This document shows positions 3,539 through 52,867 of a stretch of DNA of 64,000 nucleotides, piece by piece. The stretch spans positions 6,368,001 through 6,432,000 of the forward strand of contig CBDDPY010000002.1 in assembly GCA_965232515.1 (NCBI GenBank), in the 5' to 3' direction. A model generated the notes under the pieces. It was not told the DNA's origin and made no database searches. It saw nothing but the letters and a program-made list of their open reading frames with translations. Made by a program: the position numbers and the translations under genes. Origin of the DNA: Alphaproteobacteria bacterium. Lineage in GTDB: Bacteria; Pseudomonadota; Alphaproteobacteria; GCA-2731375. How positions within the stretch are numbered: position 1 is the stretch's first letter; every line of letters starts with the position of its first letter.

Positions 3539-4479
3539 TGGCCCCGCAGACGCGCGATACCGGACTTCTGGGGCGCCTGCCCGCCGTTCGCGGACGCTAT
3601 CGCGAGAACGTCTCGCTGGCCGGCGTCACCTGGTTCCGCGTCGGTGGCGAAGCCGAAGTGGTGTTCCGGCCGGCCGACGCCGACGATCTCGCCGAGTTCA
3701 TGGCGAACCGGCCGGCGGACGTTCCGGTCACGGTGTTGGGCGTCGGTTCCAATCTGCTGGTGCGCGACGGCGGCATCGACGGCGTCGTGATCCGGCTCGG
3801 CCGTGGGTTTGTCGAGGTGACGTCTGACGACGGTCGTGTGACCGCGGGCGCGGGCGCCCTTGACGTCAACGTTGCGCTCGCCGCCCGCGAGATGAGCCTC
3901 TCCGGCCTTGAATTTCTGCGCGGCATCCCCGGCACCATCGGCGGTGCGCTGCGCATGAATGCCGGCGCCTATGGCAGCGAAATCAAGGACGTGCTGATCG
4001 AAGCGCAAGCCGTCGATGCGGCCGGCGTGAAGCATAGGGCCGATGTCGCCGCGCTCGGCATGTCCTACCGCCACAGCAGCGCGCCGGCCGACTGGATCTT
4101 TACCGTCGCCGTCCTGCGGGCGCAGCCCGGCGACGGCGCAGCGATCGGACGGCGCATGGACGAGATCAACGCCGCGCGCGAGGCGAGCCAGCCAATCCGG
4201 TCCCGGACCGGCGGCAGCACCTTCAAGAACCCGCCGGGGCGCAAAGCCTGGCAGCTGATCGACGAGGCCGGCTGTCGTGGGCTGCGTCGCGGCGGCGCCA
4301 TGGTCTCCGAGCAGCACTGCAATTTCCTGATCAACACCGGCGACGCCACCGCGGCGGATCTCGAGGCGTTGGGCGAGGAAGTTCGCCGTCGGGTCGCCGA
4401 CGCCACCGGCATCAGCCTGGAGTGGGAGATCAAACGCGTCGGTCGGCATGCCGGCAATGCCATCGGGGAGGCCGGCTGA
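3535..4479 (+). CDS. murB: UDP-N-acetylenolpyruvoylglucosamine reductase
   Basis: [42 protein letters not shown]; start set at the ATG overlapping the murC stop. Confidence 0.96.
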
Positions 4480-5390
4480 TGGCGAAGCATGTGGCCGTGC
4501 TGATGGGCGGATGGTCGTCGGAACGCGAGGTTTCGCTGGTAACCGGCAAGGCCTGCGCCAAGGCGCTGCGTGACGTCGGCTATCGCGCCACCGAGGTCGA
4601 TGTCGGCCGTGACGTCGCGCAGGTGTTGACGAAACTCAAACCCGACGTGGCGTTCAACGCGCTGCATGGGCCCTGGGGCGAGGACGGCTGCATTCAGGGC
4701 CTGCTCGAGATTCTCGACATTCCCTATACCCATTCCGGCGTGCTGGCCTCGGCCGCGGCTATGCACAAGGCCACGGCCAAGGACATCTTCGCGCGCGCCG
4801 GCATCCGCTGTCCCGAGGGCCGGGTGATGCCGACCGCGGCGATCAACGCGGCCGATCCGTACGAGCGGCCCTACATCGTCAAGCCGATCAGCGAAGGCTC
4901 TACCTGCGGCGTGCGTATCGTCAAGGCAGGCGACAACGAACCGCCGGTCGGCGCGGACTGGACCTACGGCGACGACGCCCTGACGGAGGTCTTCATTCCC
5001 GGCCGCGAGCTGTCCTGCGCCGTGATGGACGGCCAGGCGTTGGGCGTGGTCGAAATCCGGCCGCGCAGCGGCTTCTACGACTACGAGGCCAAGTACACCG
5101 AGGGCAAGACGGACCATGTCATGCCGGCGCCGATCGACGCCTGCAGTTATGACGAGGCCATGCAGATGTCGGCGCTGGCGCATGAAGTGCTTGGCTGTCG
5201 CGGCGTCAGCCGGGCCGACCTGCGCTATGACGACACCGCGGGCGAGCCCGGTACGCTTTACCTGTTGGAGGTCAATACGCAGCCGGGCATGACGCCGCTC
5301 AGCCTGGTGCCCGAGATCGCCGCCGATCAGGGCATGGATTTCGGCGCGCTGGTCGGATGGATGGTGGAGGACGCCACATGCGGCCGCTAG
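4479..5390 (+). CDS. ddl: D-alanine-D-alanine ligase
   Basis: GGWSSEREVS, LHGPWGEDG, YDYEAKY, LEVNTQPGMT motifs; TGATG coupling to murB. Confidence 0.96.
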   Translation: MAKHVAVLMGGWSSEREVSLVTGKACAKALRDVGYRATEVDVGRDVAQVLTKLKPDVAFNALHGPWGEDGCIQGLLEILDIPYTHSGVLASAAAMHKATAKDIFARAGIRCPEGRVMPTAAINAADPYERPYIVKPISEGSTCGVRIVKAGDNEPPVGADWTYGDDALTEVFIPGRELSCAVMDGQALGVVEIRPRSGFYDYEAKYTEGKTDHVMPAPIDACSYDEAMQMSALAHEVLGCRGVSRADLRYDDTAGEPGTLYLLEVNTQPGMTPLSLVPEIAADQGMDFGALVGWMVEDATCGR

Positions 5391-6229
5391 GCAAGGGCCG
5401 TGACCAGAAGCGTCGCACGACCGGCCGGCGGCGGCCGGCGTCGCGTTGGCGCCGGGCGACCTATTTCGCCGGCGGTGCCGGCCTCGCGGTTGCGGCCTTG
5501 ATCGCGACGGGCAACTGGATGTGGCAGGCCGGCCACGTCGGCCGCGTCCAGGCATCGATCGACGCCTGGCTGGGCGATCTCGTCGCCGGGGCGGGCCTGA
5601 CGGTCCGGGAAGTCTATGTCACCGGCCGCGTGAACACGACGACTCGCGAGCTGCTGCAGGCGCTGGCCGTGGATCGGGGCGATCCGATCCTGGCCTTCGA
5701 TCCGGACGAGGCGCGCAAACGTCTGTTGCGCCTCGACTGGATCAAGTCGGTCGAAGTGTCCCGCCGACTGCCCGATCTGATCGACGTCCGGCTGCAGGAG
5801 CGCGAGCCGTTGGCGCTGTGGCAGCGCGGCAAGCGTTTCGTGCTGGTCGACCGCGAAGGCGAGCCCATCACCGGGAATGACGTCGGGCGTTTTCGCGACC
5901 TGCCGATCGTGGTTGGCAAGGACGCGCCGCAGCATGCCGCCGACATCATCGAGCTGCTGGCGGCGGACGGCGCGCTATTCCAGCAGGTCCACGCGCTGGT
6001 GCGGGTAGGAGGGCGTCGCTGGGACGTCCAGCTCGATACCGGGATCGAGGTCCACCTGCCCGAGACCGATGCGGGCGAGGCTTGGTCGCAACTGTCTGCG
6101 TTGCAGGCCGAAGAGGGCATCTTTGATCGCGATATCGCCATTATCGATCTGCGCCGGCCGGGTCACCTGGTCGTCCGCCTGACGCCCGAGGCCGCCGCCA
6201 GACGGCGCGACCCCGGCGAGAACACGTGA
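5378..6229 (+). CDS. ftsQ: Cell division protein FtsQ
   Basis: Basic N-terminus, one TM segment, POTRA region, RRWD and IDLR motifs; lies between ddl and ftsA. Confidence 0.92.
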   Translation: MRPLGKGRDQKRRTTGRRRPASRWRRATYFAGGAGLAVAALIATGNWMWQAGHVGRVQASIDAWLGDLVAGAGLTVREVYVTGRVNTTTRELLQALAVDRGDPILAFDPDEARKRLLRLDWIKSVEVSRRLPDLIDVRLQEREPLALWQRGKRFVLVDREGEPITGNDVGRFRDLPIVVGKDAPQHAADIIELLAADGALFQQVHALVRVGGRRWDVQLDTGIEVHLPETDAGEAWSQLSALQAEEGIFDRDIAIIDLRRPGHLVVRLTPEAAARRRDPGENT

Positions 6230-6270
6230 AGGGGGCCCATGCATTCTGGTTCGTATTGGGAGTCTGGACG

Positions 6271-7512
6271 GTGCCTGTAGGGCGTAACGCATTGATCGCG
6301 GCACTCGATGTCGGGTCGACTAAGGTCTGCTGCTTCGTCGCCCGGCCCGAGCCCGGCGGCGCGCGCGTCGTCGGCATCGGCCACCAGGTCTCGCGCGGCA
6401 TGCGGGCCGGCGCCGTGATCGACATGGAAACGGCCGAGACGGCCATTCGGGCGGCCGTCGACACGGCGGAACGGATGGCCGGCGAAACCGTGCATCGGGT
6501 CTACGTCAACCTGACCGGCGGCCGGCCGCACTCACAGCTGGTCGGCGTCGAGATGGCGATCGCCGGCCACCAGATCAGCGACGGCGACATCCGGCGGGTT
6601 TTGAACCAGGCCCAGGCCCGGACCGATCTCGGCGACCGTCAGGTCATCCACGCCGTGCCGACCGGCTACTCGATCGATGGCAGCCGCGGCATTCACGATC
6701 CGCGCGGCATGTATGGCTCGCGTCTCGGCGTCAACCTGCATGTCGTCGCCGCGGCCACCGGTCCGCTGCAGAATCTGAAGGTCGTGGTCGAGCGCTGCCA
6801 TCTCGAGGTGGCCGACTTCGTGGTCTCGCCCTATGCGTCGGCGCTCTCGACGCTGGTCGAGGACGAGAAGGATCTCGGCGTCACGCTGATCGACATGGGC
6901 GGCGGCACGACCAGCATCGCCGTGTTCTACGACGGCGCGCTGGTGCATGCCGATGTCGTGCCGGTCGGCGGCGCCCACGTCACCAACGACATCGCCCGCG
7001 GCCTGTCGACCCCGATGGCCGACGCCGAACGCATGAAGACGCTTTATGGCAGCGCCATCGTCGGTCCGGCCGACGAACGCGAGATGGTCTCGGTGCCGCA
7101 GATCGGCGAGGCCGGCGAGGACAGCGTTCAGCAAATTCCCCGATCGATGCTGATCGGCATCATTCAGCCCCGTATCGAAGAGACCCTGGAACTGGTGCGC
7201 GACCGCCTGAAGGAGAGCAACGCCGACCGTTTGGCCGGCCGTCGCCTCGTGTTGGCCGGTGGCGCCAGCCTGTTGACCGGCGTGCGCGAGCTCGCCGCCC
7301 GGGTCCTCGACAAACAGGTTCGTATCGGCCGGCCGTTGCGTGTTCACGGTCTCGCCGATGCAACGGGCGGGCCGGCCTTTGCCGGCTGCGCCGGTCTCCT
7401 GGCCTATGCCATGCGCAAGCCGGAGGAGGCAGAACAGGTGCCGCCGCCCGCGGTGCTTGAGGCGACCGGGCGCATGGCTCGCATCGGCGCTTGGATACGG
7501 GAGAACTTCTAA
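6271..7512 (+). CDS. ftsA: Cell division protein FtsA
   Basis: [30 protein letters not shown]-terminal amphipathic WIRENF; GTG start after GGGAG chosen (ORF track starts at 6226). Confidence 0.95.
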
Positions 7513-7591
7513 TGCTTCACCAGCACGAAGCAGTGGGACGGGCACGTTTCAGTCAGCAACAGCAATCTCAGGCTTAGCCCAGGAGGCGAAA

Positions 7592-9301
7592 ATGAGCATT
7601 ACCTTCACGCCACCGACCACCACCGAGCTGAAGCCGCGCATTGTCGTGATCGGCGTTGGCGGCGCCGGCGGCAACGCGGTCAACAACATGATCAGCTCGG
7701 GGCTCGAGGGCGTCGAGTTCCTTGTCACCAACACCGACGCCCAGGCGCTGGCGCAAAGCCAGGCCGAGCGCAAGATCCAGCTCGGCGTGACCATCACCGA
7801 GGGCCTGGGTTGCGGCGCCCGTCCCGATATCGGCCGCGCGGCGGCCGAAGAGGTGATCGAGCAGATCATCGATCACCTGTCGGGCACGCACATGGCGTTC
7901 ATCACCGCCGGCATGGGCGGCGGCACCGGCACCGGCGGTGCCCCGGTGATCGCCCAGGCCTGCCGCGATCAGGGCATCCTGACGGTCGGCGTCGTCACCA
8001 AGCCCTTCCATTTCGAGGGCACGACGCGCATGCGGATCGCCGAGGGCGGCATCGAGGAGCTGCAGAACTTCGTCGATACGCTGATCATCATTCCGAACCA
8101 GAACCTGTTCCGGGTCGCGAATGAGAAGACGACCTTCGCCGACGCCTTCGCCATGGCCGACGACGTCCTGCATTCGGGCGTGCGCGGCATCACCGACCTG
8201 ATGGTCATGCCGGGTCTGATCAATCTCGACTTCGCCGACGTGAAAACGGTGATGGGCGAGATGGGCAAGGCCATGATGGGCACCGGCGAGGCCGAGGGCG
8301 AGAAGCGGGCGCTGGACGCGGCCGAGGCGGCGATCTCGAACCCACTGCTGGACGAGGTCTCGATGAAGGGCGCCAACGGCGTGCTGATCAATATCACCGG
8401 CGGTCTGGACCTCACGCTCTACGAGGTCGACGAGGCCGCGAACCGCATCCGCGAGGAGGTCGATCCCGACGCCAACATCATCGTCGGCTCGGCGCTGGAC
8501 GAGAACCTCGCCGGCCTGATGCGGGTTTCGGTGGTGGCGACCGGCATCGATGCCGAGGCGGCGGCCGAGCCGCGACCGAAGGCGATGCCGCGTCTGTATG
8601 CGGTCGGCGGCAACACGGCGACGGAGCCGGCGGCCGAGGAAGCCTCGGAAGCACCTGCCGCGGCGATGCCGGAGGGGATTGTCGAGGACCCCGGTACCCC
8701 GGCCACGGTCGCGGTCGGCGCCACGAACGAAGCGCTCGATATCCGCACGGAGCCGTTGGCGGTCGCGGAGCCGGCCTTTGAACCGGAGCCGCAGCCGGAG
8801 CAGCCGCCGCTGCTCGAGAACACTGTGATGCCGGTCGGCAACACGGTGCCGCAGCCCAAGCCGCTGATGCCGGAGCGCGATCCGATGCTCGATGCGCAGG
8901 CCACGGCCGTGGAAGAGGTGAGCAACGAGCCGTTCATCGCGCCGCCGCCGGTCAAGCCACGTTCGGCCCGCGATCTGCTGCGGCGTCCGCACCCCATCGC
9001 GGAAGCCGATGCCGTGAATGCGGATGGTCAGCGCGAGAACAGGCGGCAGCGGGGTCTCGGTCTGTTCGCGCGTATGACCAGCGCCGCCCGGCCGACGCCC
9101 GAACCGGCCGCCGAAGCGCCGGCGCAGCCGGCTCAGCAGCCGCAGTTGCGGAGCGAGCCCGTCGAACCGGCGCCCGCGGTCGAGACGCAGCCGGCCCCGG
9201 AGACCGCCGCGTCACCGGAACCGGCGGATCAGCTTGCGCCGCCGCGGCAGGATGAGGACCTGCTCGAGATCCCGTCGTTCCTGCGGCGCCAGGCCAACTG
9301 A
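7592..9301 (+). CDS. ftsZ: Cell division protein FtsZ with long Pro/Ala/Glu-rich linker
   Basis: [27 protein letters not shown]-terminal [12 protein letters not shown]; AGGAGG SD before ATG 7592. Confidence 0.98.
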
Positions 9302-9414
9302 AGCCGGCTGGCGTTCTCTCGTCTCCGCATTTCCGCACCCGGCCGTCCCGAGGTTTCACGAACCGAGAGGCGGCCGGGTGGGGTGCGGCGAGTGCCTGTT
9401 TGTTTCGTGTTTGA

Positions 9415-12302: not shown

Positions 12303-17680
<5,378 letters not shown>

Positions 17681-26314: not shown

Positions 26315-27703
26315 TTAGTTGGCCGGCAGCATCTTGCCGGGATTCATGATGTTCTGCGGGTCAATCGCCGTTTTCAGCGCCCGCATGACGCTGATCGCCG
26401 GCCCGTGCTCCTCGGTCATGTATTTGATCTTGCCCAGGCCGACCCCGTGCTCGCCGGTGCAGGTGCCGTCCATCGACAGCGCCCGGGCGACCAGCCGCTC
26501 GTTGATGCGCTCGGCTTCCTTGACCTCGTTCTCGTCGTTCATGTCCAGAACGAAGGCGATGTGGAAGTTGCCGTCGCCGACATGGCCGACGATGGGCGCG
26601 ATCAGGAACGACTCCTCAAGATCCTGTTTGGTCTCGAGAATGCATTCTGCGAGGCGCGAAATCGGCACGCAAACATCAGTGGCCCAGACCTCGCAACCGG
26701 TCCGGAGCGCTTTTGCCGCATAGGCCGCGTCGTGCCGGGCCTGCCAGAGCTTGTTGCGCTGTTCCGGATTGGTCGTCCATTGGAAGTCCGAGCCGCCGAG
26801 ATCGTCGGCGAGCGCTTTCACCATCTCGGCCTGTTCGGCGACGCCGGCGTCGGTGCCGTGGAACTCCAGGAACAGCGTCGGCTTCACCGGATAGTCCAGG
26901 CCGGAAAACTTGTTGACGGCGTCGAGCTGCACCTCGTCCAGCAGCTCGATGCGGGCGATCGGGATGCCGGACTGGATGGTCAGGATCACCGTGTTGACCG
27001 CGCCTTCCAGGTCGTCAAAGGCGACCACGGCGGACGAGATTGCTTCCGGAATCCCGTAGAGCCTGAGCGTGATCTCGGTGATGATGCCGAGTGTGCCCTC
27101 CGAGCCGACGAACAGCCGGGTCAGGTCGTAGCCGGCCGAGGATTTCTTCGCCCGCCGGGCGGTCTTGATGATGCGGCCGTCGGCCATGACCACGGTCAGG
27201 CCCAGCACGTTCTCGCGCATGGTGCCGTAGCGCACGGCGTTGGTGCCGGACGCCCGCGTCGCCGTCATGCCCCCCAGGCTGGCGTCGGCGCCGGGATCGA
27301 TCGGGAAGAACAGGCCGGTGTCGCGCAGGTATTCGTTCAGCTGCTTGCGGGTGACGCCCGGCTGCACCCGGCAGTCCAGGTCCTCGGCGTTCACCTCCAG
27401 CACCTCGTTCATGTTCATGAGGTCGATGGAGATGCCACCTTTTGGCGCGTGCACATGGCCTTCCAGCGACGTGCCGGTGCCGTAGGGGATCACCGGCGTG
27501 TCGTGGGCGGCGCAGATCTTGACGATCTCGGCCACTTCCTCGGTCGAGTTGGCGAAGGCCACCCCGTCGGGCGCCATGGTGGCGTAATAGGCCTCGTCCG
27601 TGCCGTGCCGGTCGCGCACCGCCTGCGACGTGCTCAGGCGGTCGCCCAGCAGCGCCTTCAGCTCGGTGATTACGCTGTCGATTTCCAGCGGCGCAACGCT
27701 CAT
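26315..27703 (-). CDS. FAD-linked oxidase (D-lactate dehydrogenase/GlcD family)
   Basis: GTGTSLEGH, DPGADASLGGM, GSEGTLG, HVGDGNFH, TGEHGVG, NPGK. Confidence 0.92.
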   Translation of the reverse strand: MSVAPLEIDSVITELKALLGDRLSTSQAVRDRHGTDEAYYATMAPDGVAFANSTEEVAEIVKICAAHDTPVIPYGTGTSLEGHVHAPKGGISIDLMNMNEVLEVNAEDLDCRVQPGVTRKQLNEYLRDTGLFFPIDPGADASLGGMTATRASGTNAVRYGTMRENVLGLTVVMADGRIIKTARRAKKSSAGYDLTRLFVGSEGTLGIITEITLRLYGIPEAISSAVVAFDDLEGAVNTVILTIQSGIPIARIELLDEVQLDAVNKFSGLDYPVKPTLFLEFHGTDAGVAEQAEMVKALADDLGGSDFQWTTNPEQRNKLWQARHDAAYAAKALRTGCEVWATDVCVPISRLAECILETKQDLEESFLIAPIVGHVGDGNFHIAFVLDMNDENEVKEAERINERLVARALSMDGTCTGEHGVGLGKIKYMTEEHGPAISVMRALKTAIDPQNIMNPGKMLPAN

Positions 27704-27860
27704 CGTTTCCCACTCCTGTCAGGCGACCCCAGATGTCCTTGCCGACAATGTACGTTCCGGTCTGCCTCCCGGCAACTCCGGCACCCCCGAACCGGCTTGA
27801 GTGAATTGGTTAATCCTGCTTCGATGACGGCATAGGTTAACCAGTCATCAGGAGAGCGCC

Positions 27861-28640
27861 ATGGCCGCGACCGGCAACGTCACCCCGATCCCCAAGGGCA
27901 TGACCCCGGAAGAATGGCAGACCCGCTGCGAGCTCGCGGCCTGCTATCGGCTGACCGCGCTCTACGGCTGGACCGACCTCACCGGCACCCATATCTCGGC
28001 CCGGATCCCCGGCACGGACGAGTTCCTGCTCAATCCCTTCGGCATGCTGTTCGACGAGATCACGGCCTCGGCGCTGATCAAGGTCGATCACGAGGGCAAG
28101 CTGCTGAGCGAGAGCGACTTCCCCATCAACCCGGCCGGCTTCACCATTCATTCGGCCGTGCACATGGCGTCTGCCGACATGAACTGCGTGATGCACACCC
28201 ATACGCGCGCCGGCAACGCGGTCGCCATGCTGAAGGAAGGCCTGCTGCCGCTGAACCAGAAGGCCCTGCTGATCCTCGGCTTCGTCGCCTATCACGACTA
28301 CGAGGGCGCGGCGCTGGATCTCGACGAGCGCGAGCGCATCGTCCGCAATCTCGGCGACAACCGGATCCTGTTCCTGCGCAACCACGGCCTGCTGACGGTG
28401 GGCAAAACCATCGGCGAGGCCTTCGTCTGGATGTACCGGGCCGAGACCGCCTGCCAGTTCCAGGTCGACGCGCTGTCCTGCAGTCGCGAGCTCAACGCGC
28501 TCAGCCAGGAAACCATCGACCACGTCATCGCCCAGGGCCGGGAGATCTTCGCCGAAGGCGGCTTCGCCGCCGCCGGCCACGAATGGCCGGCCCTTATCCG
28601 CCAGCTCGAACGCGAAATCGGCACCGACTACCGGACCTGA
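27861..28640 (+). CDS. Class II aldolase/adducin family protein
   Basis: THISAR, NPAGFTIHSAVH, HTH, LRNHG. Confidence 0.9.
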   Translation: MAATGNVTPIPKGMTPEEWQTRCELAACYRLTALYGWTDLTGTHISARIPGTDEFLLNPFGMLFDEITASALIKVDHEGKLLSESDFPINPAGFTIHSAVHMASADMNCVMHTHTRAGNAVAMLKEGLLPLNQKALLILGFVAYHDYEGAALDLDERERIVRNLGDNRILFLRNHGLLTVGKTIGEAFVWMYRAETACQFQVDALSCSRELNALSQETIDHVIAQGREIFAEGGFAAAGHEWPALIRQLEREIGTDYRT

Positions 28641-28760
28641 CGGCCAGTCGTTGGCCGTTTGCTGGCTGGGCGCAGGGCACACTGCAGAAGCAAGGGTAGA
28701 AAAAACCTGAGATTGTGCTATTTTAACGAATAACGATCCGATTGCTTGAGGAAGCAAGCG

Positions 28761-28877
28761 TTGAGATTTTGCGGATACTTTACGACGACCTGCGGCCCGG
28801 CCCGATTAACGTCGGTCGGGCGTCGCGCCCCGAGCCTTCCGCGCATCATGCCGGGTGGTTCTGACGACGGGCTTTGA
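28761..28877 (+). other. Candidate leader ORF (TTG start, 38 aa; internal ATG at 28848 gives MPGGSDDGL)
   Basis: GAGGA at 28748-28752 before TTG 28761; frame open to TGA 28875-28877; overlaps the candidate antiterminator strand. Confidence 0.3.
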
Positions 28878-28905
28878 TCCGAACGAGATCGACCGCCGTC
28901 GAAGG

Positions 28906-28939
28906 ACCCTCCCACACAGACGTGCTGGGAGGGTTTTTT
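28906..28939 (+). terminator. Intrinsic terminator in the leader of the RNA-repair operon
   Basis: ACCCTCCCA-CAC-agac-GTG-c-TGGGAGGGT running into a T6 tract, ending 16 nt before the first ATG. Confidence 0.75.
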
Positions 28940-28955
28940 GATCGTGGCGTCGTTG

Positions 28956-29777
28956 ATGGAAAAACAGATGGCCAACACGAACGACAGTCAAATTGAGCCT
29001 GATGTGCGTGCGGAGATCGAACGTCGCCTCGCCGAGATCGAGGCGTCAGAGAATGTGCGTGTGCTGTTGGCGGTCGAGTCTGGCAGCAGGGCCTGGGGGT
29101 TTCCGTCGCCGGACAGCGATTACGATGTCCGCTTCGTCTATGCCCGTCCGGTCGATTGGTACCTGTCGATCGACCGCCGCCGCGACGTCATTGAACGGCC
29201 GATCGATGGCGACCTGGATATCAATGGCTGGGATCTCAAGAAGGCGTTGCAGCTTCTGATCAAGCCAAATGCGGTAATGCACGAATGGCTGGAATCGCCG
29301 ATCAAGTATCGAGAGGAGGCGGCTGCCACGGCACGGCTGCGTGCGCTCGCGGACGAAACGCTGCATCGGATACCGGCGACCTATCACTATCTGCATCTGG
29401 GCGAGGGGCAGTGGCGGCGCTTTATCGACGGCCGTGATCGTGTCGCCGTCAAGAAGTACTTCTATGTGCTGCGACCGGCGTTGGCTTTGTGCTGGTTGCG
29501 CCAGAATGATGACGATCGGGTGCCGATGAATATCGCGGAACTGCGGGCCGGCTGTGATTTGCCGGCCGATGTTGATGCCTTCCTCGACGACCTGATCGAA
29601 CGTAAGCGCAGCACCAAGGAGCTCGGGCAAGGACCGCGGATTCCGGCTCTCGACCGATTTGTTACGGCCGCGTTCGCGGCAGCGCGAGAGCGCGCGTACT
29701 CGCCGCGGCGGCCGGTGAAGGGCCTATTCGAGCAGGCAAACCAGTTGTTCCGCGATCTCGTGCTCGATCAAAGGTGA
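28956..29777 (+). CDS. Pol-beta superfamily nucleotidyltransferase (RlaP/YcgL, Nuc-transf family)
   Basis: AVESGSRAWGFPSPDSDYDVRFVY (GS..DxD), DINGWDLKKAL, EWLESP, KKYFYVLRP; start 28956 or 28968. Confidence 0.88.
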   Translation: MEKQMANTNDSQIEPDVRAEIERRLAEIEASENVRVLLAVESGSRAWGFPSPDSDYDVRFVYARPVDWYLSIDRRRDVIERPIDGDLDINGWDLKKALQLLIKPNAVMHEWLESPIKYREEAAATARLRALADETLHRIPATYHYLHLGEGQWRRFIDGRDRVAVKKYFYVLRPALALCWLRQNDDDRVPMNIAELRAGCDLPADVDAFLDDLIERKRSTKELGQGPRIPALDRFVTAAFAAARERAYSPRRPVKGLFEQANQLFRDLVLDQR

Positions 29778-29788
29778 GGTAGGCTCAA

Positions 29789-31183
29789 GTGCTGCTGACC
29801 ATTTCCACCGATCATCGGCCGGCGACGGATCTCGGCTTCCTGCTGATGAAGCATCCGGATCGTGTGCACGCGCGCGAGCTGGCGTTCGGCACGGCGACGA
29901 TCTTCTATCCCGAAGCGGCGGCCGAGCGCTGCACGGCGGCACTTACGCTGGATATCGATCCCGTCCGTCTCGTGCGTGGCGGCGGCGCGCGGGTGGGAGG
30001 GCTGTTCGACCAATACGTGACCGATCGCCCGTATGCCGTATCGTCATTTCTGTCGGTCGCCATCTCCCGGCTGCTCGGCACGGCGATGGGTGGGCGCAGC
30101 CGGGAGCGGCAGGAGCTGGCCGATACGCCGATACCGCTGACGGCGATGCTGACACCGCTGCCCTGCCGGGGCGGTCCGGAGATCCTGGAACGTCTGTTTA
30201 CACCGCTCGGCTACGAGGTCACAACGCGGCGGCACGCGCTCGATCTGCATCATCCCGATTGGGGCGACAGCGTCTATGTGACCGCGACCCTGTCGGGCCG
30301 TGTCCGGCTGGCCGATCTGCTGACGCACCTCTTCGTGCTGGTGCCGGTGCTCGACAATCAAAAGCACTACTATGTCGGCACGGACGAGGTCGAAAAGCTG
30401 TTGGCGAAAGGGCAGGGCTGGCTCGAACACCACCCAGCCAAGCAGTTGATTGCGCGGCGTTACCTCAAGCACCGGGCCGGCTTGACGCGTGCCGCGCTCG
30501 AGCAGTTGGCCGAACAAGTTGAGCCGCAGACCCCGGAACTCCACGAAGCCCAGGAGGCCGAAGAGGAGGCGTTGGAGGTGCCGATGCGCCTTAACGACCT
30601 TCGCCTGGAGGCGGTGACCGAAGCACTGCTGGCGACGGGCGCCGCGCGCGTGCTCGATCTCGGCTGCGGCGAGGGCAAGCTGTTGCGGCGACTGCTGCGT
30701 GAAAAGCAGTTCGTACGTCTCGTCGGCGTCGATACGGCGCCGAAGGTGCTGGAGCGGGCTGCCCAGCGACTGAAGCTGGAACAGATGCGCCCGCGGCAGC
30801 GCGAACGTATCGAGCTGCTGCAGGGCTCCCTGGTCTATCGTGATGAACGCCTCAATGGCTTCGATGCCGCCGCCGTCATTGAAGTCATCGAGCACATGGA
30901 TGTCGAGCGCCTGCCGGCGTTCGAGCGGGCGCTGTTCGGCGACGCGCGGCCGCAATCCGTCATCGTGACCACGCCGAACCGCGAGTTCAACGCGACGTTC
31001 GAACGCTTGACGTCGGACCGACTGCGCCATCCGGACCATCGTTTCGAATGGACGCGGGCCGAGTTTGCGGCCTGGGCGACGGCGGTGGCCGACCGCTATC
31101 AATACGCCGCCCACTTCGACGGGATCGGAGAGCCGCATCCCGACCATGGCGCGCCGACACAAATGGCGGTCTTCTCGCGATGA
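29789..31183 (+). CDS. hen1: Bacterial Hen1 3'-terminal RNA 2'-O-methyltransferase with ligase-activating N-domain
   Basis: MLLTIST..PATDLGFLL.KHP N-domain, DQYVTDRPY, VLDLGCGEG, EVIEH, TTPN, RHPDHRFEWTRAEF. Confidence 0.95.
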   Translation: MLLTISTDHRPATDLGFLLMKHPDRVHARELAFGTATIFYPEAAAERCTAALTLDIDPVRLVRGGGARVGGLFDQYVTDRPYAVSSFLSVAISRLLGTAMGGRSRERQELADTPIPLTAMLTPLPCRGGPEILERLFTPLGYEVTTRRHALDLHHPDWGDSVYVTATLSGRVRLADLLTHLFVLVPVLDNQKHYYVGTDEVEKLLAKGQGWLEHHPAKQLIARRYLKHRAGLTRAALEQLAEQVEPQTPELHEAQEAEEEALEVPMRLNDLRLEAVTEALLATGAARVLDLGCGEGKLLRRLLREKQFVRLVGVDTAPKVLERAAQRLKLEQMRPRQRERIELLQGSLVYRDERLNGFDAAAVIEVIEHMDVERLPAFERALFGDARPQSVIVTTPNREFNATFERLTSDRLRHPDHRFEWTRAEFAAWATAVADRYQYAAHFDGIGEPHPDHGAPTQMAVFSR

Positions 31184-33741
31184 CAAGCCACACGATCTCC
31201 ATCCCGGAATACTGCCTGGTGCTGCTGGTCGGGGCGTCAGGATCGGGCAAGTCGACGTTCGCGGCGCGGCATTTCAAGCCGACCGAGATCATTTCCTCGG
31301 ACCGCTGCCGCGCCGTTGTCGCCGATGACGAGTCGGACCAATCGGCCACGGCGGACGCGTTCGAGCTTGTCCATTTCATTGCCGAGAAGCGACTGAACGC
31401 GCGACGGCTGGCGGTCATCGACGCCACGAACGTTCGGCCCGAGGACCGGCGCTCATTCGTCGATCTGGCGAAGCGCTACCACGCGTTGGTCGTGGCCTTC
31501 GTCTTCGATATGCCGGAAGCGCTGTGTCACGAGCGGAACGCCGGACGGCCCGAGCGCGACTTCGGCCGTCACGTCGTCAGCAACCATCTGCGCGCGCTGA
31601 AACGCGGCATCAGGCGCATGGACCGGGAAGGCATTCGCTTCGTCTACCGTTTCTCGGAGCCAGCCCGGGTCGACGAGGCAATCGTCGAACGCCAAAAACT
31701 CTGGGTCGACAAGCGCGATGAAGGCGGGCCGTTCGACATCATCGGCGACGTGCACGGCTGTGCCGATGAGCTCGAGAAGCTTCTGACAAACCTTGGATAT
31801 CGCATTGATATCGAAGGAACATCGTCCGGATCGAAATACTCGGTCATACCGCCGGTAGGGCGCAAAGTCGTCTTTCTCGGCGATCTTGTCGACCGTGGCC
31901 CGCGCGTCCCGGACACCTTGCGGCTGGCGAAGACCATGGTCGATGCGGGCCAGGCGCTCTGCGTCCTCGGCAATCATGAAGCCAAGCTGGTCCGGAAGCT
32001 GAAGGGCCGGAACGTGAAGCTGACGCACGGTCTTGCCGAAAGCGTTGCCCAAATCGAGGCGCAGCACGACGGCTTCGTCGACGAGATGCTGCCGTTCATG
32101 GACGGGCTGATCAGCCATTACGTTCTCGATGGCGGCAAGCTTATCGTCGCCCATGCGGGCCTGCGCGAGGAAATGCAGAACCGGTCGTCGGGCAAGGTCC
32201 GGTCGTTTGCGCTCTACGGCGATACGACGGGCGAGACCGACGAGTTCGGCTTGCCGGTGCGGCACAATTGGGCGGCCGAGTATGGCGGCCGGGCGAAGGT
32301 GGTTTACGGTCACACGCCGGTGCCGGATGCCGAGTGGCTGAATGGCACGATCTGCATCGATACTGGTTGCGTCTTCGGCGGCAAGCTGACGGCCCTGCGC
32401 TATCCGGAAATGGAGCTGGTCGAGGTGCCGGCGGCCCAAGTCTATTGCGAGCCGGTGCGTCCGATCGCGGCGCCGAAAAGCAGTGCCGCGACCGACGATA
32501 CGCAGCTGCAGTTGTCGGACGTGATCGGGAAACGTGTCATCGGCACGCGGCTGAGCCGGTCGGTGACCATCCGCGAAGAACAGGCCGCGGCAGCCCTCGA
32601 GGTAATGAGCCGCTTTGCCATCGATCCGCGCTGGTTGATCCACCTGCCGCCGACCATGTCGCCGTCGGAGACATCCACGCGTGACGGCTATCTCGAGCAT
32701 CCGGACGAGGCATTGGACTATTTCCGCCGTCATGGCGTCGGCACCGTGATTTGCGAGGAAAAGCATATGGGCTCGCGCGCCGTCATGGTCGTTTGCCGGG
32801 ATGATTCGACGCCCAGGAAACGTTTCGGCGTCGACGGTTCACGGCGCGGCGTCGTCTACAGCCGGACCGGCCGGGCCTTCTTCCCGGACCGGGAGGCCGA
32901 GGCGGCCGTGATCGATCGTGTTGCATCGGCCGCGAGCCAAGCGGGCTGGTGGGACGAGTTCGCGACGGACTGGTTCTGCCTGGATGCGGAAGTCATGCCC
33001 TGGTCCGTAAAGGCGCAGTCCTTGATCGATCAGCAATACGCCCCGGTCGCCGCCGCCGCCGAGGCCGGCCTGCAGGCGGCGGTCGATGCGCTGGCGCTGG
33101 CCCTGGACCGCGGCGTCGATGTGGCCGGGCTGGCAGAGCGCTTCCGGCAACGTCAGACGCGTGCACGAGCCTATCGGGATGCCTACAACAACTATGTCTG
33201 GCCGGTCTCGGACCTGGACGACCTGCGCATCGCGCCCTTCCATCTGCTGGCCAGCGAGGGTGCGGTGCACGCCGACAAGGATCACCAGTGGCACATGAAG
33301 GTACTGACGCGCTTGTGTAATGGCGATCCGGCGTTGTTGTTCGCGACAACCCATCGTGTCGTCGACCTGTCCGACGAGGCTGGCGTCACCGCCGCGATGG
33401 CGTGGTGGGAAGAACTGACGGCGGCCGGCGGCGAGGGCATGGTCGTCAAGCCACTCGACTTCGTGGCGCGCGGCAAGCGTGGCCTTGTGCAGCCCGCGTT
33501 GAAATGCCGGGGCCGGGAATACCTGCGGATTATCTATGGGCCCGACTACGATGCGCCGGAAAACCTGAACCGCCTGCGCCAACGCGGCCTGTCATTGAAG
33601 CGATCGATGGCGTTGCGTGAGTTCGCGCTAGGCCTGGAATCGCTGCAGCGGTTCGTGGACCGGGAACCGTTGAGCCGCGTCCACGAATGCGTCTTCGGTG
33701 TGCTGGCCATGGAGACCGAGCCCGTCGATCCGCGGCTTTGA
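31180..33741 (+). CDS. pnkp: Bacterial Pnkp: polynucleotide kinase, metallophosphatase and adenylyltransferase/ligase
   Basis: GASGSGKST/ISSD kinase; GDVHG, GDLVDRG, GNHE phosphatase; EEKHMGSR, EGMVVKP, LKCRG ligase motifs; ATGA overlap with hen1. Confidence 0.96.
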   Translation: MTSHTISIPEYCLVLLVGASGSGKSTFAARHFKPTEIISSDRCRAVVADDESDQSATADAFELVHFIAEKRLNARRLAVIDATNVRPEDRRSFVDLAKRYHALVVAFVFDMPEALCHERNAGRPERDFGRHVVSNHLRALKRGIRRMDREGIRFVYRFSEPARVDEAIVERQKLWVDKRDEGGPFDIIGDVHGCADELEKLLTNLGYRIDIEGTSSGSKYSVIPPVGRKVVFLGDLVDRGPRVPDTLRLAKTMVDAGQALCVLGNHEAKLVRKLKGRNVKLTHGLAESVAQIEAQHDGFVDEMLPFMDGLISHYVLDGGKLIVAHAGLREEMQNRSSGKVRSFALYGDTTGETDEFGLPVRHNWAAEYGGRAKVVYGHTPVPDAEWLNGTICIDTGCVFGGKLTALRYPEMELVEVPAAQVYCEPVRPIAAPKSSAATDDTQLQLSDVIGKRVIGTRLSRSVTIREEQAAAALEVMSRFAIDPRWLIHLPPTMSPSETSTRDGYLEHPDEALDYFRRHGVGTVICEEKHMGSRAVMVVCRDDSTPRKRFGVDGSRRGVVYSRTGRAFFPDREAEAAVIDRVASAASQAGWWDEFATDWFCLDAEVMPWSVKAQSLIDQQYAPVAAAAEAGLQAAVDALALALDRGVDVAGLAERFRQRQTRARAYRDAYNNYVWPVSDLDDLRIAPFHLLASEGAVHADKDHQWHMKVLTRLCNGDPALLFATTHRVVDLSDEAGVTAAMAWWEELTAAGGEGMVVKPLDFVARGKRGLVQPALKCRGREYLRIIYGPDYDAPENLNRLRQRGLSLKRSMALREFALGLESLQRFVDREPLSRVHECVFGVLAMETEPVDPRL

Positions 33742-33788
33742 CAAACGCCGCGCTGGACGCTGTGCCGCGCGACGCTAAGATCGCCGGC

Positions 33789-34319
33789 ATGAGCTACAGC
33801 ATTCCCATCCGGCCCGGCGTCGATCGATTGCCGGCGGCGCCGATCGAGATCCATCGCGAGGCCGTGCAGGCCGAGTGGATCGACTACAACGGGCATATGA
33901 ACGTCGCCTATTACGTGCTGGCGTTCGATCATGCGACGGACCGGCTGTACGACCTGATCGATCTGGGGGTCGACTATGTCGGGCGGACGAACAACTCGGC
34001 CTTCGTGCTGGAGACGCATGTCACCTACGCCCAGGAGGTGAAGCTCGACGATCCGCTGCGGTTCACCCTGCAACTGATCGACGCCGACGCCAAGCGGCTG
34101 CATTATTATTTCGAGATGTTTCACGCCGACGACGGCTTTCTCGCCGCCACAAGCGAGCAGATCTGCATGCATGTGAATCTCGACACCCGTCGTTCGGAGG
34201 CGTTTCCGGACCCAATCCGCGAGCGCGTCGCGGCGATCATCGAGGCGCAGCGCGACCTGCCGCGGCCGGACAAGGTCGGCCGGGTCATCGGCATTCCGCG
34301 GAAGGCGGTGGCGGAGTAG
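33789..34319 (+). CDS. Hotdog-fold thioesterase (4HBT-like)
   Basis: WIDYNGHMNVAYY motif. Confidence 0.88.
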   Translation: MSYSIPIRPGVDRLPAAPIEIHREAVQAEWIDYNGHMNVAYYVLAFDHATDRLYDLIDLGVDYVGRTNNSAFVLETHVTYAQEVKLDDPLRFTLQLIDADAKRLHYYFEMFHADDGFLAATSEQICMHVNLDTRRSEAFPDPIRERVAAIIEAQRDLPRPDKVGRVIGIPRKAVAE

Positions 34320-34453
34320 CGACCCCTTTTTCGCCAAAGCCACAGCCGAAACAACGCGTTAACGGTCGTTCGTTCTTTCCTTCGTAAGGAAATCGGCGTT
34401 TAATTCCCGTTCAATCCTAGTTTTTCCGCGTTCCTGGAGGTGCCGCGCGGGCA

Positions 34454-36226
34454 ATGCGGCTGGGTTCGCTTACCGACCGCCTGGAGCGGATTACCCATCA
34501 CGAACAGGTCGTCCTGTCGGTCCTGGCCCTGGTGGCCGGCGTCGCCGTCGCCTACGCCGCGATCGGCTTCCGACTCGCCATCGGCGGCGTGCAGTGGCTC
34601 GGCTTCGGCTTTTCCACCGAGGACGTGTTCAGCCGCGCCATGCTGCTGCCCTGGTGGCAGATCATGGCTGTGCCCGTCGCCGGCGGCCTGATCGTTGGCC
34701 TGCTGCTGCAGTTCCTGATGCCGAACCAGCGGCCGCAGGGCGTCGCCGACGTGATCGAGGCGACGGCCCTGAACAATGGCCGCATGCGGTTGCGCACGGC
34801 GATGACCGCGGCGGTGATCAGCGTGACCTCGCTTGGCGCCGGCGCGTCGACCGGCCGCGAGGGGCCGATGGTGCATCTCGGCGCGGCGATCGCGTCGGGC
34901 TTCTCGCGCTATCTGCATTTGAGTCCCGCGCACGCCCGCACGCTGCTCGGCTGCGGCGTGGCTTCGGCCGTGGCCGCCTCGTTCAACGCGCCGATTGCCG
35001 GGGTATTCTTCGCGCTCGAAGTGGTGATCGGCCACTATGCCCTTTCGACCTTCGCGCCGGTGGTCATCGCGTCCGTCGCCGGCACCGTGGTCAGCCGCAT
35101 CCATCTCGGCGCCCTGCCGGCCTTCATCATCCCGGAATACGCCATCGTCAGTCTGTGGGAGTTTCCGGCTTTCCTTCTGCTGGGCATGGTCTGCGCCCTG
35201 ATCGCGGTCATCTTCATGTGGTCGATCAACTTCGCGACCGACGTGGTCGACCGGGTCGATGTGCCGGTCTGGTTGAAGCCGGTTGCTGGTGGGCTGGCAG
35301 TGGGCGCGGTGGCCGTCTACTTCCCGCACATCCTGGGCGTCGGCTACGAGGCGACGGATGCGGCGCTGAAGGAACAGCTGCCGCTCTGGCTGCTGATCGC
35401 GCTCATCATCACCAAGACGGCGGCAACGGCGACATCGCTCGGCTGCCGCTTCGGCGGCGGTGTGTTCTCGCCGTCACTGTTCCTGGGCGCCATGACCGGC
35501 GGCGCCTTCGGCATCATCGCGGCCGCCGTGTTTCCCGACCTGGCGGCGGGTCATGGGGCCTATGCCATGGTCGGCATGAGCGCGCTTGCCGCCGCGGTGC
35601 TCGGCGCCCCGATCTCGACGATCCTCATCGTCTTCGAGCTGACCAGCGACTACCGCATGACCATCGGCGTTATGGTGGCGACCTCGGTCGCTTCGGTGCT
35701 GGTTCAGCAGGTCATGGGCGGCAGCTTTTTTCACCTGCAGTTGCGTCGACGCGGCCTGGACTTGCGCGGCGGCCGGGCCCGGCACCTGCTGCAGTCGCTC
35801 CGGGTGCGGGAAGTGATCGCCAACGACTTCGAGACCATCGACGAAGCCGTGCCCGTCGGTCACATCAAGCGCAAGCTGCAGGCCATGCCGCAGGCGACGT
35901 TCCTGGTCGTGAACGGCGACGCGCGCCTCGTCGGCCAGCTCTCGTTCGCCGACCTCAAGGAGGTGGCGTTCGACGCCAGTATCGATCATCTGGTGAACGC
36001 CCGCGACGTCGTGCGCGGCAGTCCCGTCGTGCTGACGCCGGACGATCCGCTGGAGGACGCGCTGGCACTGATGGACGTGCGCGGCGAGGACCATCTCGCC
36101 GTCGTCGACAGCCCGGCGCATATGCACGTCGTCGGCATCGTCCACCACAAGGACGTGCTGCGCGCCCTTAACCGCGCCCTGTTGCAAGCCCAGGCCGAAG
36201 AGCACGACGAACAGCGCCCAGGATAA
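34454..36226 (+). CDS. ClC chloride channel/antiporter with C-terminal CBS pair
   Basis: GREGP, FNAPIAG, GGVFSPSLFLG, FELT; CBS domains. Confidence 0.93.
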   Translation: MRLGSLTDRLERITHHEQVVLSVLALVAGVAVAYAAIGFRLAIGGVQWLGFGFSTEDVFSRAMLLPWWQIMAVPVAGGLIVGLLLQFLMPNQRPQGVADVIEATALNNGRMRLRTAMTAAVISVTSLGAGASTGREGPMVHLGAAIASGFSRYLHLSPAHARTLLGCGVASAVAASFNAPIAGVFFALEVVIGHYALSTFAPVVIASVAGTVVSRIHLGALPAFIIPEYAIVSLWEFPAFLLLGMVCALIAVIFMWSINFATDVVDRVDVPVWLKPVAGGLAVGAVAVYFPHILGVGYEATDAALKEQLPLWLLIALIITKTAATATSLGCRFGGGVFSPSLFLGAMTGGAFGIIAAAVFPDLAAGHGAYAMVGMSALAAAVLGAPISTILIVFELTSDYRMTIGVMVATSVASVLVQQVMGGSFFHLQLRRRGLDLRGGRARHLLQSLRVREVIANDFETIDEAVPVGHIKRKLQAMPQATFLVVNGDARLVGQLSFADLKEVAFDASIDHLVNARDVVRGSPVVLTPDDPLEDALALMDVRGEDHLAVVDSPAHMHVVGIVHHKDVLRALNRALLQAQAEEHDEQRPG

Positions 36227-51787: not shown

Positions 51788-52312
51788 TTATTTCTTACGG
51801 AACTGGTCCAGCGCCACCACTTTGCTGCCGTCCTCGGCCGTATCTTCGGCATCCGGCTTGTCGGCAGCGTCGTCGGCCGGCGTTTCCGGGCTGGCCACCG
51901 GCAGGCCGGGTTGCGGCACCACCGCCGGCGGTTTCGCGACACTGCCTTCCGCGCCGGCGGCCGGCTGGAACTGCAGTCCGAACTGAACCGAGGGGTCGAA
52001 AAAGCCGGTTAGCGCCCGGAACGGCACGCGCAGCCGTTCATGCACCTTGTTGAAGCTGAGCGTGATCTCGAAGACGTCGTCCTCGACCTCCAGGCCCCAG
52101 AACTGGTGCTGAATGACGATCGTCATCTCGTCGGGGTACTTGGCCCGCAGATGGTCGGCCAGGACGACATCCGGATCTTCGGTCTGGAACGACAGATAGA
52201 AATGATGCGCGCCGGGCAGGCCGTCGTCGCGCGCGCGCTCCAGCGCCTGGCGTACGACATTCCGAAGCGCGGTCTCGACCATCCGGTTGTAGTCCATCAG
52301 GTCCTTCGGCAT
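51788..52312 (-). CDS. sspB: Alphaproteobacterial SspB (ClpXP adaptor)
   Basis: GLPGAHHFY, YPDEMTIVIQHQFW, F.DPSV.FGLQF, C-terminal VVALDQFRKK; directly downstream of ssrA. Confidence 0.93.
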   Translation of the reverse strand: MPKDLMDYNRMVETALRNVVRQALERARDDGLPGAHHFYLSFQTEDPDVVLADHLRAKYPDEMTIVIQHQFWGLEVEDDVFEITLSFNKVHERLRVPFRALTGFFDPSVQFGLQFQPAAGAEGSVAKPPAVVPQPGLPVASPETPADDAADKPDAEDTAEDGSKVVALDQFRKK

Positions 52313-52361
52313 TCCGCACTCCATCCCCTGCCAGCCGCGTGTCCACACGCGGGTAGAACTA

Positions 52362-52695
52362 AGTGGGGGGCTTCTGTTGCCCGGTGCCCCCCGAAACCGC
52401 GCTTACCTGTCTAATTAGGCAGCGAGCGCCATTTCGTTATCATTGGCACTTGTAGAAACGGCCCGATAACGGCGGAACCATGCCGGGCACAAACCGTACC
52501 TTTATTACGCGCGTCGATCCTGTTTCGCCCCCATCAGCAACGCACTCGTCAACGCCCTGTTAACCCTGTCTGCAGGAACTCCTGCGGGTGCTGCGATTCG
52601 GGCGAATGCGCTGATGGTGGAGGCGCCGGGTACCGCCCCCGGGTCCGCTACGTCTATTCCGTACGGCGTTTAGCGCCATAGCCGGATATCTCCGG
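52362..52695 (-). ncRNA. ssrA: Circularly permuted two-piece tmRNA; tag (A)ANDNEMALAA
   Basis: Acceptor piece ends GGCGCCTCCACCA at 52615; coding piece starts GGGGGCGAAACAGGATCGAC at 52532; tag frame 52447-52415; outer ends approximate. Confidence 0.95.
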
Positions 52696-52867
52696 CACCC
52701 TAAATATAGGCGTTTTCAAGCCAAATCGGAAGGGGCAGGGGCGGCGCGCAATGGCGGCCTTCGGGGGCGGTTGGCAGGCCGGCGATCGAAGGAGTAGGTT
52801 GCCGAAAGCCGTCCAGCCCGGTCGCTCGATGCCGGCACGGTGGCGGAATGGCTCGCCGGAGTAGCAC

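Follow-up and report, generated by a model that had tools for sequence, protein, structure and literature searches.

An RlaP-family nucleotidyltransferase gene coupled to hen1 and pnkp: a probable three-gene RNA-repair cassette of an alphaproteobacterial chromosome

Among the bacterial systems that repair RNA cut by ribotoxins, one of the closest to the locus analysed here is the Pnkp-Hen1 system of the Anabaena variabilis and Clostridium thermocellum type, a heterotetramer. According to the accounts given in PMC4411300 and PMC3675462, Pnkp phosphorylates the 5'-OH and strips the 2',3'-cyclic phosphate, and the N-terminal domain of Hen1 unlocks the ligase of Pnkp. Hen1 then methylates the 2'-OH of the 3'-terminal nucleoside and Pnkp seals the break, the junction so formed being resistant to the same ribotoxin. 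The same two proteins, full length and with the same domain order, are encoded in a 64,000-nucleotide stretch of an alphaproteobacterial chromosome (GenBank assembly GCA_965232515.1, contig CBDDPY010000002.1, positions 6,368,001 to 6,432,000), which as a whole is hereafter called the window. Unlike the canonical two-gene system, the window has a gene of a PF10127 nucleotidyltransferase, RlaP, before hen1 in the same coupled unit. It is likely that rlaP, hen1 and pnkp form a three-gene RNA-repair cassette in which Pnkp would heal the RNA ends, RlaP would optionally refill them, Hen1 would 2'-O-methylate the 3' end, and Pnkp would seal the break.

Another three-protein RNA-repair assembly with Hen1 and a methylated junction is the Pnkp1-Rnl-Hen1 heterohexamer, as described in PMC4411300. 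There, a separate ligase is the third component and Pnkp1 has no ligase domain, whereas the Pnkp of the window keeps the PF16542 ligase domain and the third protein is a nucleotidyltransferase. No separate ligase gene was found in the 20-43 kb part of the window.

The PF10127 family received the name RlaP (short for RNA ligase-associating Pol-beta) from Burroughs and Aravind (Nucleic Acids Res 2016), who described operons shared with various RNA ligases, as cited in the December 2025 preprint of Carruthers, Fatma and Huang (bioRxiv 10.64898/2025.12.29.696909). The experiments presented in the text of this preprint concern the RlaPs of Pseudomonas fluorescens and P. aeruginosa (PfRlaP and PaRlaP), whose genes lie between rtcB and rtcA. 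In vitro, both enzymes add one or two nucleoside monophosphates at an RNA 3'-OH, not at a 3'-phosphate; they favour the 5' half of a cleaved-tRNA mimic, with its 3' end at the nick, and also work on single-stranded RNAs alone. For a tRNA that lacked one nucleotide of the anticodon loop, aminoacylation is reported there to stay below 10% of the control without RlaP and to rise significantly when RlaP and GTP act before ligation. The preprint proposes that RlaP serves as an antidote to nucleases which, once they have cut, remove nucleotides, such as RloC and PaOrf2, and mentions that RlaP is found, too, in operons that encode 5'-phosphate RNA ligases, which its 3'-OH product fits, as it does not fit RtcB.

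The RtcB-RlaP-RtcA operons of the two pseudomonads, which are under RtcR, share with the window locus the RlaP family, its catalytic motifs and the proposed refilling at the 3'-OH before ligation. The partner in those operons is the 3'-phosphate ligase RtcB, which does not directly accept the 3'-OH product of RlaP, a mismatch raised by the authors of the preprint. In the window, by contrast, RlaP is partnered by a ligase of the 5'-phosphate type, which uses a 3'-OH, and by a methyltransferase in addition. The window operon has no RtcR-type regulator beside it. Among the window open reading frames (ORFs) scanned, no family match to RtcB, RtcA or RtcR was obtained, the ORFs at 61306-62439 and 62436-63311 and those without a Pfam family remaining unassigned.

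Proteins and gene layout

The three genes, located at window positions 28956-33741 on the forward strand, are co-directional and full length, and all three reading frames are intact in the ORF calls (Table 1). The TGA stop codon of rlaP (29775-29777) is followed by a gap of 11 nt (29778-29788) and the GTG start codon of hen1 at 29789, and a Shine-Dalgarno-like sequence, AGGTGAGGTAGG, covers the rlaP stop codon and the first part of this gap. The stop codon of hen1 and the start codon of pnkp overlap in the tetranucleotide ATGA (31180-31183). A 6-kb scan revealed two weak internal terminator-like sites, fewer than the mean of 4.7 in shuffled sequences. It seems that rlaP, hen1 and pnkp are probably translated from one mRNA; rlaP adjoins an RNA ligase gene, being in the same coupled unit as pnkp (PF16542). 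An earlier note on this DNA, made from the sequence alone, had described three linked RNA-repair genes with catalytic motifs, separated by an 11-nt gap and an ATGA overlap, and this description was confirmed by full-length matches of the three proteins to PF10127, TIGR04074 and TIGR04075.

The match of RlaP to PF10127 extends over profile positions 2-249 of 249 (E 1.8e-83, 280.5 bits at a cut-off of 23). Its Pol-beta nucleotidyltransferase motif comprises G43-S44, D55-x-D57 and the third carboxylate D88, all invariant in 40 homologues. The catalytic assignment of D55, D57 and D88 is based on the general motif of Pol-beta nucleotidyltransferases and on the three strictly conserved aspartates named in the preprint. 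The same G-S/D-x-D block is visible in the alignment of PfRlaP and PaRlaP in the supplement of the preprint (bioRxiv 10.64898/2025.12.29.696909), and the identity to the N-terminal block of PfRlaP, counted by eye in that alignment, is about 60% over 91 residues. The AlphaFold2 model of RlaP (predicted local distance difference test, pLDDT, 90.2) has an N-terminal nucleotidyltransferase domain, whose beta-strand core spans residues 35-120, and a C-terminal helical domain that reaches residue 270. This predicted layout, including a terminal helix that packs back, appears to agree with the published description of the PfRlaP crystal structure, the comparison being one of descriptions only. The family is large, with 7997 of 8000 scored candidates at E <= 1e-3; leaving aside the window's own record, the closest of these 8000 shares 77% identity and the others at most 66%.

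Hen1 matches the TIGR04074 equivalog over positions 1-462 of 462 (688.5 bits, cut-off 340), and the Pfam search revealed a Hen1_L domain (E 1.8e-106) and a C-terminal S-adenosylmethionine methyltransferase domain. The Pnkp-ligase-activating N-terminal domain occupies residues 1-241 and the methyltransferase residues 258-463, and the motifs LDLGCGEG and EVIEH are present. Solved relatives are 4dqz, 4drf and 4e6n for the N-terminal domain (E 1.1e-79) and 3jwg-3jwj for the methyltransferase (E ~1e-65). A predicted complex of Hen1 and RlaP (alignments A2 and A1, Pnkp not in it) gave no answer, with a score of 0.00 that speaks neither for nor against binding.

Pnkp matches TIGR04075 over positions 2-851 of 851 (1404 bits, cut-off 750) and contains the Pfam domains AAA_33 (kinase), Metallophos and PNKP_ligase (PF16542, E 1e-182). 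The kinase, 2',3'-phosphatase and ligase regions correspond to residues 5-172, 174-426 and 443-853. The P-loop GASGSGKST and the motifs GDVHG, GDLVDRG, GNHE and KHMGS (residues 528-532) are all present, and the lysine of KHMGS is presumably the site of adenylylation. This motif aligns with the same motif of 4drf, the solved relative of the ligase domain (E 1.3e-159), and the phosphatase and kinase are related to 4j6o and 4gp6, respectively. Thus, each domain of Hen1 and Pnkp has a solved relative, and the Hen1 N-terminal domain and the Pnkp ligase match the co-crystallised Hen1-N/Pnkp-C pair 4drf/4e6n.

Table 1. Coordinates of the cassette, of features upstream of it and of paired PF10127 genes on plasmids
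Feature	Position	Strand	Remarks
rlaP	28956-29777	+	273 aa; alternative starts TTG 28938 (database model, 279 aa) and ATG 28968
RlaP catalytic core G43-S44, D55-x-D57, D88	29082-29231	+	invariant in the 40-sequence alignment
rlaP stop, 11-nt spacer with Shine-Dalgarno-like AGGTGAGGTAGG, hen1 GTG start	29775-29791	+	read directly from the sequence
hen1	29789-31183	+	464 aa; 3'-terminal RNA ribose 2'-O-methyltransferase
pnkp	31180-33741	+	853 aa; trifunctional kinase / 2',3'-phosphatase / ligase
AT-rich intergenic segment past the aldolase gene	28680-28790	.	GC 0.43
Intrinsic-terminator-like hairpin with T6	28906-28941	+	8-bp GC-rich outer stem, 3 inner pairs
Paired PF10127 genes (plasmid loci)	L086 4862-6567; L087 5874-7606; L089 5865-7570; L081 6009-7798; L082 1645-3556		

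Distribution of RlaP beside Hen1 and Pnkp

The neighbourhoods of RlaP were surveyed in species-representative genomes. A profile scan with an alignment of 40 RlaPs, using one genome per species, yielded 574 relatives; the best 80, with 42-60% identity, were kept, and their neighbours were searched by tblastn with the Hen1 and Pnkp of the window. Hen1 and Pnkp directly flank RlaP at five of these 80 nearest loci (L002, L003, L006, L007 and L008). The gene order of the window, RlaP-Hen1-Pnkp, was found in Afifella (L003), where the contig ends inside pnkp. For each of the three window proteins, the best or a near-best relative is found at this locus (60%, 59% and 64% identity), which points to inheritance of the genes as a unit. 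The order Hen1-RlaP-Pnkp was found in Aquisalinus (L002), in a metagenome-assembled genome of Pseudomonadota (L006) and in a member of Rhodobacteraceae (L007). In Sulfitobacter sp. DFL-14 (L008, 1866-11947), both bacterial RNA-repair systems are merged in the tightly packed group Ro60-RtcB-Hen1-X-RlaP-Y-Pnkp, where X (7304-7987, 227 aa) and Y (8814-9389, 191 aa) belong to no Pfam family. RtcB lies within 4.5 kb of RlaP in 14 of the 80 loci, L007 and L008 included, usually in the form RtcR / Ro60-RtcB-RlaP-RtcA.

A tblastn search with Hen1 against 72,556 plasmid records returned 19 records, and the annotation of 15 of them (all but H8, H16, H18 and H19) was examined. PF10127 genes are located within or beside Hen1-Pnkp at five of the 15 annotated loci. 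The nucleotidyltransferase (NT) genes follow in the order Hen1-Pnkp-NT-NT in the Asticcacaulis and Hymenobacter plasmids and Hen1-NT-NT(-x)-Pnkp in the plasmids of Deinococcus gobiensis, D. ficus and D. taeanensis. As in the window, RlaP-family genes are embedded in or appended to the operon; on the plasmids they always form a pair, a longer paralogue of 304-364 aa and a shorter one of 259-269 aa, whereas the window has a single 273-aa gene. The longer paralogue of Asticcacaulis and Hymenobacter matches the N-terminal half of the profile only. The arrangement suggests a paired or heteromeric form of RlaP.

A tblastn search with the window RlaP at E <= 1e-10 recovers two of the five RlaP-bearing plasmid loci, which makes the counts based on similarity minimum values. 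The association of RlaP with Hen1 and Pnkp recurs in at least three phyla (Alphaproteobacteria, Bacteroidota and Deinococcota as listed) and in four gene orders. The linkage, a survey of which had been suggested by the earlier note, is not peculiar to this genome, being present at 5 of the 80 RlaP loci and 5 of the 15 plasmid loci.

Several smaller observations were made at the surveyed loci. At L013 (8001-9577), RlaP is directly followed by a stand-alone metallophosphoesterase that shares 55% identity with Pnkp's phosphatase domain; neither Hen1 nor a ligase lies nearby, and the two genes may form a minimal dephosphorylate-then-extend pair. On the D. taeanensis plasmid (L089, 2311-7570), genes for a small AAA_33 kinase-like protein, a Thg1-family 3'-5' polymerase and a DUF705 protein are located just upstream of Hen1 and two RlaPs, and the gene table of this plasmid, from which pseudogenes are omitted, lists no pnkp. 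Type II toxin-antitoxin genes (RelE/ParE family or MazE-like antitoxin) occur within a few kilobases at four of the 15 plasmid loci (L081, L083, L084 and L095); this proximity may mean nothing, such modules being common on plasmids.

Proposed pathway and alternative explanations

In the pathway that seems likely for the cassette, Pnkp would phosphorylate the 5'-OH of ribotoxin-cut RNA and remove the 2',3'-cyclic phosphate, as established for its family. Between dephosphorylation and methylation, RlaP would add one or two untemplated nucleotides to the 3'-OH, as its characterised homologues do, and might thereby rescue RNAs that have lost nucleotides after the first cut, as by anticodon nucleases of the RloC type. 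Hen1 would bind and activate the ligase domain of Pnkp and 2'-O-methylate the 3'-terminal nucleoside, and Pnkp would then seal the break to give a junction resistant to re-cleavage, both steps being established for the respective families. The chemistry of RlaP fits the cassette because the phosphatase of Pnkp supplies a 3'-OH and the ligase of Pnkp consumes one. RlaP is probably a free-standing accessory enzyme here, not an obligate subunit.

Replacement of a nucleotide at the 3'-OH before methylation and sealing, which the earlier note had put forward, is a role predicted in two reviews of the Aravind group (as given in PMC7824862 and PMC6514570) and, in the account of the preprint, partly demonstrated in vitro for the two Pseudomonas RlaPs; for the cassette it would hold by analogy. 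The novelty that the note implied for this fill-in idea did not stand, since the literature already contains it. The gene association, like the role proposed for RlaP, has been published, and the locus is a clean and intact but ordinary example. What it offers is an RlaP linked to the one system of bacterial RNA repair that, chemically, takes the RlaP product directly, and hence a better test bed for refilling before sealing than the RtcB operons studied so far, with their mismatch of end chemistry. The cassette would also allow the protective 2'-O-methyl group to be located after refilling, and its main use would be in testing the order of refilling, methylation and sealing. Beyond this value as a test bed, no new principle is added, the association and the role being in print.

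Several points weigh against the proposed pathway. The characterised RlaPs come from RtcB operons, and for the cassette the sequence of steps is drawn from homologues. Untemplated addition would, as the preprint (bioRxiv 10.64898/2025.12.29.696909) itself points out, mostly give the wrong nucleotide, and extension of ends of undamaged length would be harmful. In the Pnkp1-Rnl-Hen1 complex, the phosphatase is believed to hand the 3' end to the methyltransferase, and this in turn to the ligase, inside a single assembly (as presented in PMC4411300), and a separate RlaP would somehow have to gain access to that end. In addition, 10 of the 15 plasmid loci have Hen1-Pnkp, or Hen1 alone in the gene table, without RlaP, so that RlaP is dispensable for the core Hen1-Pnkp system and is an optional addition to it. 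The terminator-like hairpin at 28906-28941, directly upstream of the operon, makes its expression uncertain. Finally, no RNA ligase gene was found near RlaP in 63 of the 80 nearest loci, although for 51 of these 63 the scan covered two ORFs on each side (194 ORFs).

The last point means that RlaP may have a ligase-independent role. It could be a general RNA 3'-end enzyme, tailing or repairing various RNAs, that lies beside hen1-pnkp in a loose cluster of RNA-damage genes and takes no part in the same pathway. Some stand-alone contexts are indeed conserved: dnaA-dnaN-recF-RlaP-gyrB, with no RNA-repair partner, occurs at five alphaproteobacterial loci (L021, L035, L038, L040 and L041), four of them from Rhodobacterales families, and a LysR/MFS-RlaP context occurs at seven Nocardia loci. 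Some of the remaining 51 ligase-less loci are located among restriction-modification, TIR/SEFIR, nSTAND, SMODS or Fic genes. The phylogenetic tree of RlaP, built from 79 sequences (the window and 78 of the 80 loci, L004 and L044 being left out with ORF calls outside the cluster), placed the RtcB-linked sequences in one well-supported group. The six Hen1/Pnkp-linked sequences were placed in two neighbouring groups, interleaved with unlinked ones; the Hen1/Pnkp label changes six times on the tree, at least two of the changes being forced by supported branches, and it is no more clustered than shuffled labels. The activity of the purified enzymes on lone single-stranded RNAs, as reported in the preprint, is also consistent with a role of this kind. 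Against it stand the recurrence of direct adjacency to Hen1/Pnkp in four gene orders and three phyla, the translational coupling of the genes at the window locus and the preference of the characterised enzymes, in the preprint's account, for the 3' end at the nick of the cleaved-tRNA mimic. It seems unlikely, on balance, that RlaP acts outside the Pnkp-Hen1 pathway.

A stricter integration of RlaP can also be imagined, in which it would be a built-in step of Pnkp-Hen1. RlaP would receive the 3' end from the Pnkp phosphatase and pass it on to Hen1, and the methyl group would be placed on the added nucleotide, blocking both cuts of an excising anticodon nuclease. The operon would perhaps lie behind a conditional terminator, the hairpin at 28906-28941, which would open on RNA damage. 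We regard this version as rather improbable.

The composition of the locus bears on the possibility that the cassette is a horizontally acquired passenger, poorly expressed or silent, with upstream transcription stopping at the hairpin with T6 before rlaP. The G+C content at third codon positions (GC3) of rlaP, 0.719, is the lowest among the 45 genes compared (z = -3.2 relative to a mean of 0.837 and a standard deviation of 0.037 for the 42 genes outside the cassette), and the low tail also holds hen1 (0.791) and pnkp (0.801). The low GC3 would be compatible with an old horizontal acquisition and is no proof of one. An AT-rich segment is located at the upstream border, the terminator-like hairpin ends 15 nt before the start of rlaP, the flanking genes are core metabolic ones, and a sigma-70 consensus scan of 28500-34500 revealed no promoter-like site, although it dealt with one consensus type only. 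On the other side, three intact full-length frames with conserved catalytic motifs argue for selection, and read-through or an internal start is possible. A silent passenger is, in our view, very unlikely.

That RlaP nucleotidylates a target other than RNA, either a small molecule, in the manner of aminoglycoside nucleotidyltransferases, or a partner protein, as the earlier note had suggested, is hardly credible: a PDB sequence search with RlaP found no relative and the best solved-structure neighbours of its model are the kanamycin/neomycin nucleotidyltransferases ANT(4') (Foldseek E 5e-4, template modelling score 0.44-0.49), but this weak fold match (12-14% identity, root-mean-square deviation of ~8 A) reflects a shared two-domain Pol-beta architecture, the neighbours of the RlaP family are RNA-repair genes and not resistance genes, and only RNA was labelled by RlaP among E. 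coli macromolecules in the experiment that the preprint describes (bioRxiv 10.64898/2025.12.29.696909).

Upstream region and chromosomal setting

The AT-rich segment at 28680-28790, with a G+C content of 0.43 against 0.654 for the window, falls within the lowest 0.4% of 111-nt windows, and it is a possible promoter region. Both this segment and the unrelated nature of the flanking genes had been pointed out in the earlier note, and both were borne out. The upstream neighbour is a class II aldolase gene (27861-28640, forward strand), and the downstream neighbours are a 4HBT_2 thioesterase gene on the forward strand, which probably starts with ATG at 33789, 48 nt past the stop codon of pnkp, and then a CLC channel gene. 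None of them is related to the operon.

The hairpin at 28906-28941 is separated by 265 nt from the stop codon of the co-directional aldolase gene. Its predicted energy is -18 to -21 kcal/mol, the folding of the 187-nt leader has a z-score of -3.4, and it is the only run of six or more T with a hairpin in front within the 64-kb window, on both strands. No Rfam family matches the hairpin, and when the 315-nt intergenic region was compared by blastn with the window and with all loci, only short matches at chance level were obtained. A similar hairpin with T5 precedes hen1 by about 20 nt in the plasmid locus of Asticcacaulis, whose upstream gene is divergent.

Terminator-like sites were sought in the 150 nt before the first gene of 19 operons and before 45 control gene starts of the same loci. 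They were found at 3 of the 19 operons (the window, L007 and L081) and at 5 of the 45 control starts, and the hairpin with a T-run was rejected as a conserved attenuator of Hen1/Pnkp operons. Since there is no enrichment, the hairpin of the window is treated as a local feature. Either it ends an unannotated, possibly small, transcript or a long 3' untranslated region of the aldolase gene, or the operon is read through it; it could also act as an attenuator.

The window belongs to the core chromosome: a cell-division and murein cluster occupies positions 1-9300 and is followed by lpxC, bamD, recN and ligA. None of the window ORFs scanned resembled a ribotoxin gene, and the search for PADLOC anti-phage defence families gave generic methyltransferase and P-loop matches only.

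Some further features of the window were recorded. An Rfam search by E-value, which covered positions 27500-35000, gave a sub-threshold match to the Burkholderia small RNA Bcj14 on the reverse strand (33653-33824; 29 bits against a gathering threshold of 59, E 0.038); it straddles the stop codon of pnkp and the start of the thioesterase gene and is probably due to chance. In the search of the whole window at the gathering threshold, the only match was a transfer-messenger RNA (tmRNA) of the alpha type, in two pieces (52362-52735, 258 bits), which adjoins an SspB gene, the pair occupying 51788-52735 on the reverse strand. This tmRNA marks the source of the DNA as an alphaproteobacterium. The NAD-dependent DNA ligase at 13970-16071 (forward strand) is represented by two overlapping ORFs in different frames, the first (13970-15736) with the adenylation, OB and zinc-finger domains and the second (15649-16071) with the BRCT domain; a frameshift, an error of sequencing or the ORF calling itself may account for this split.

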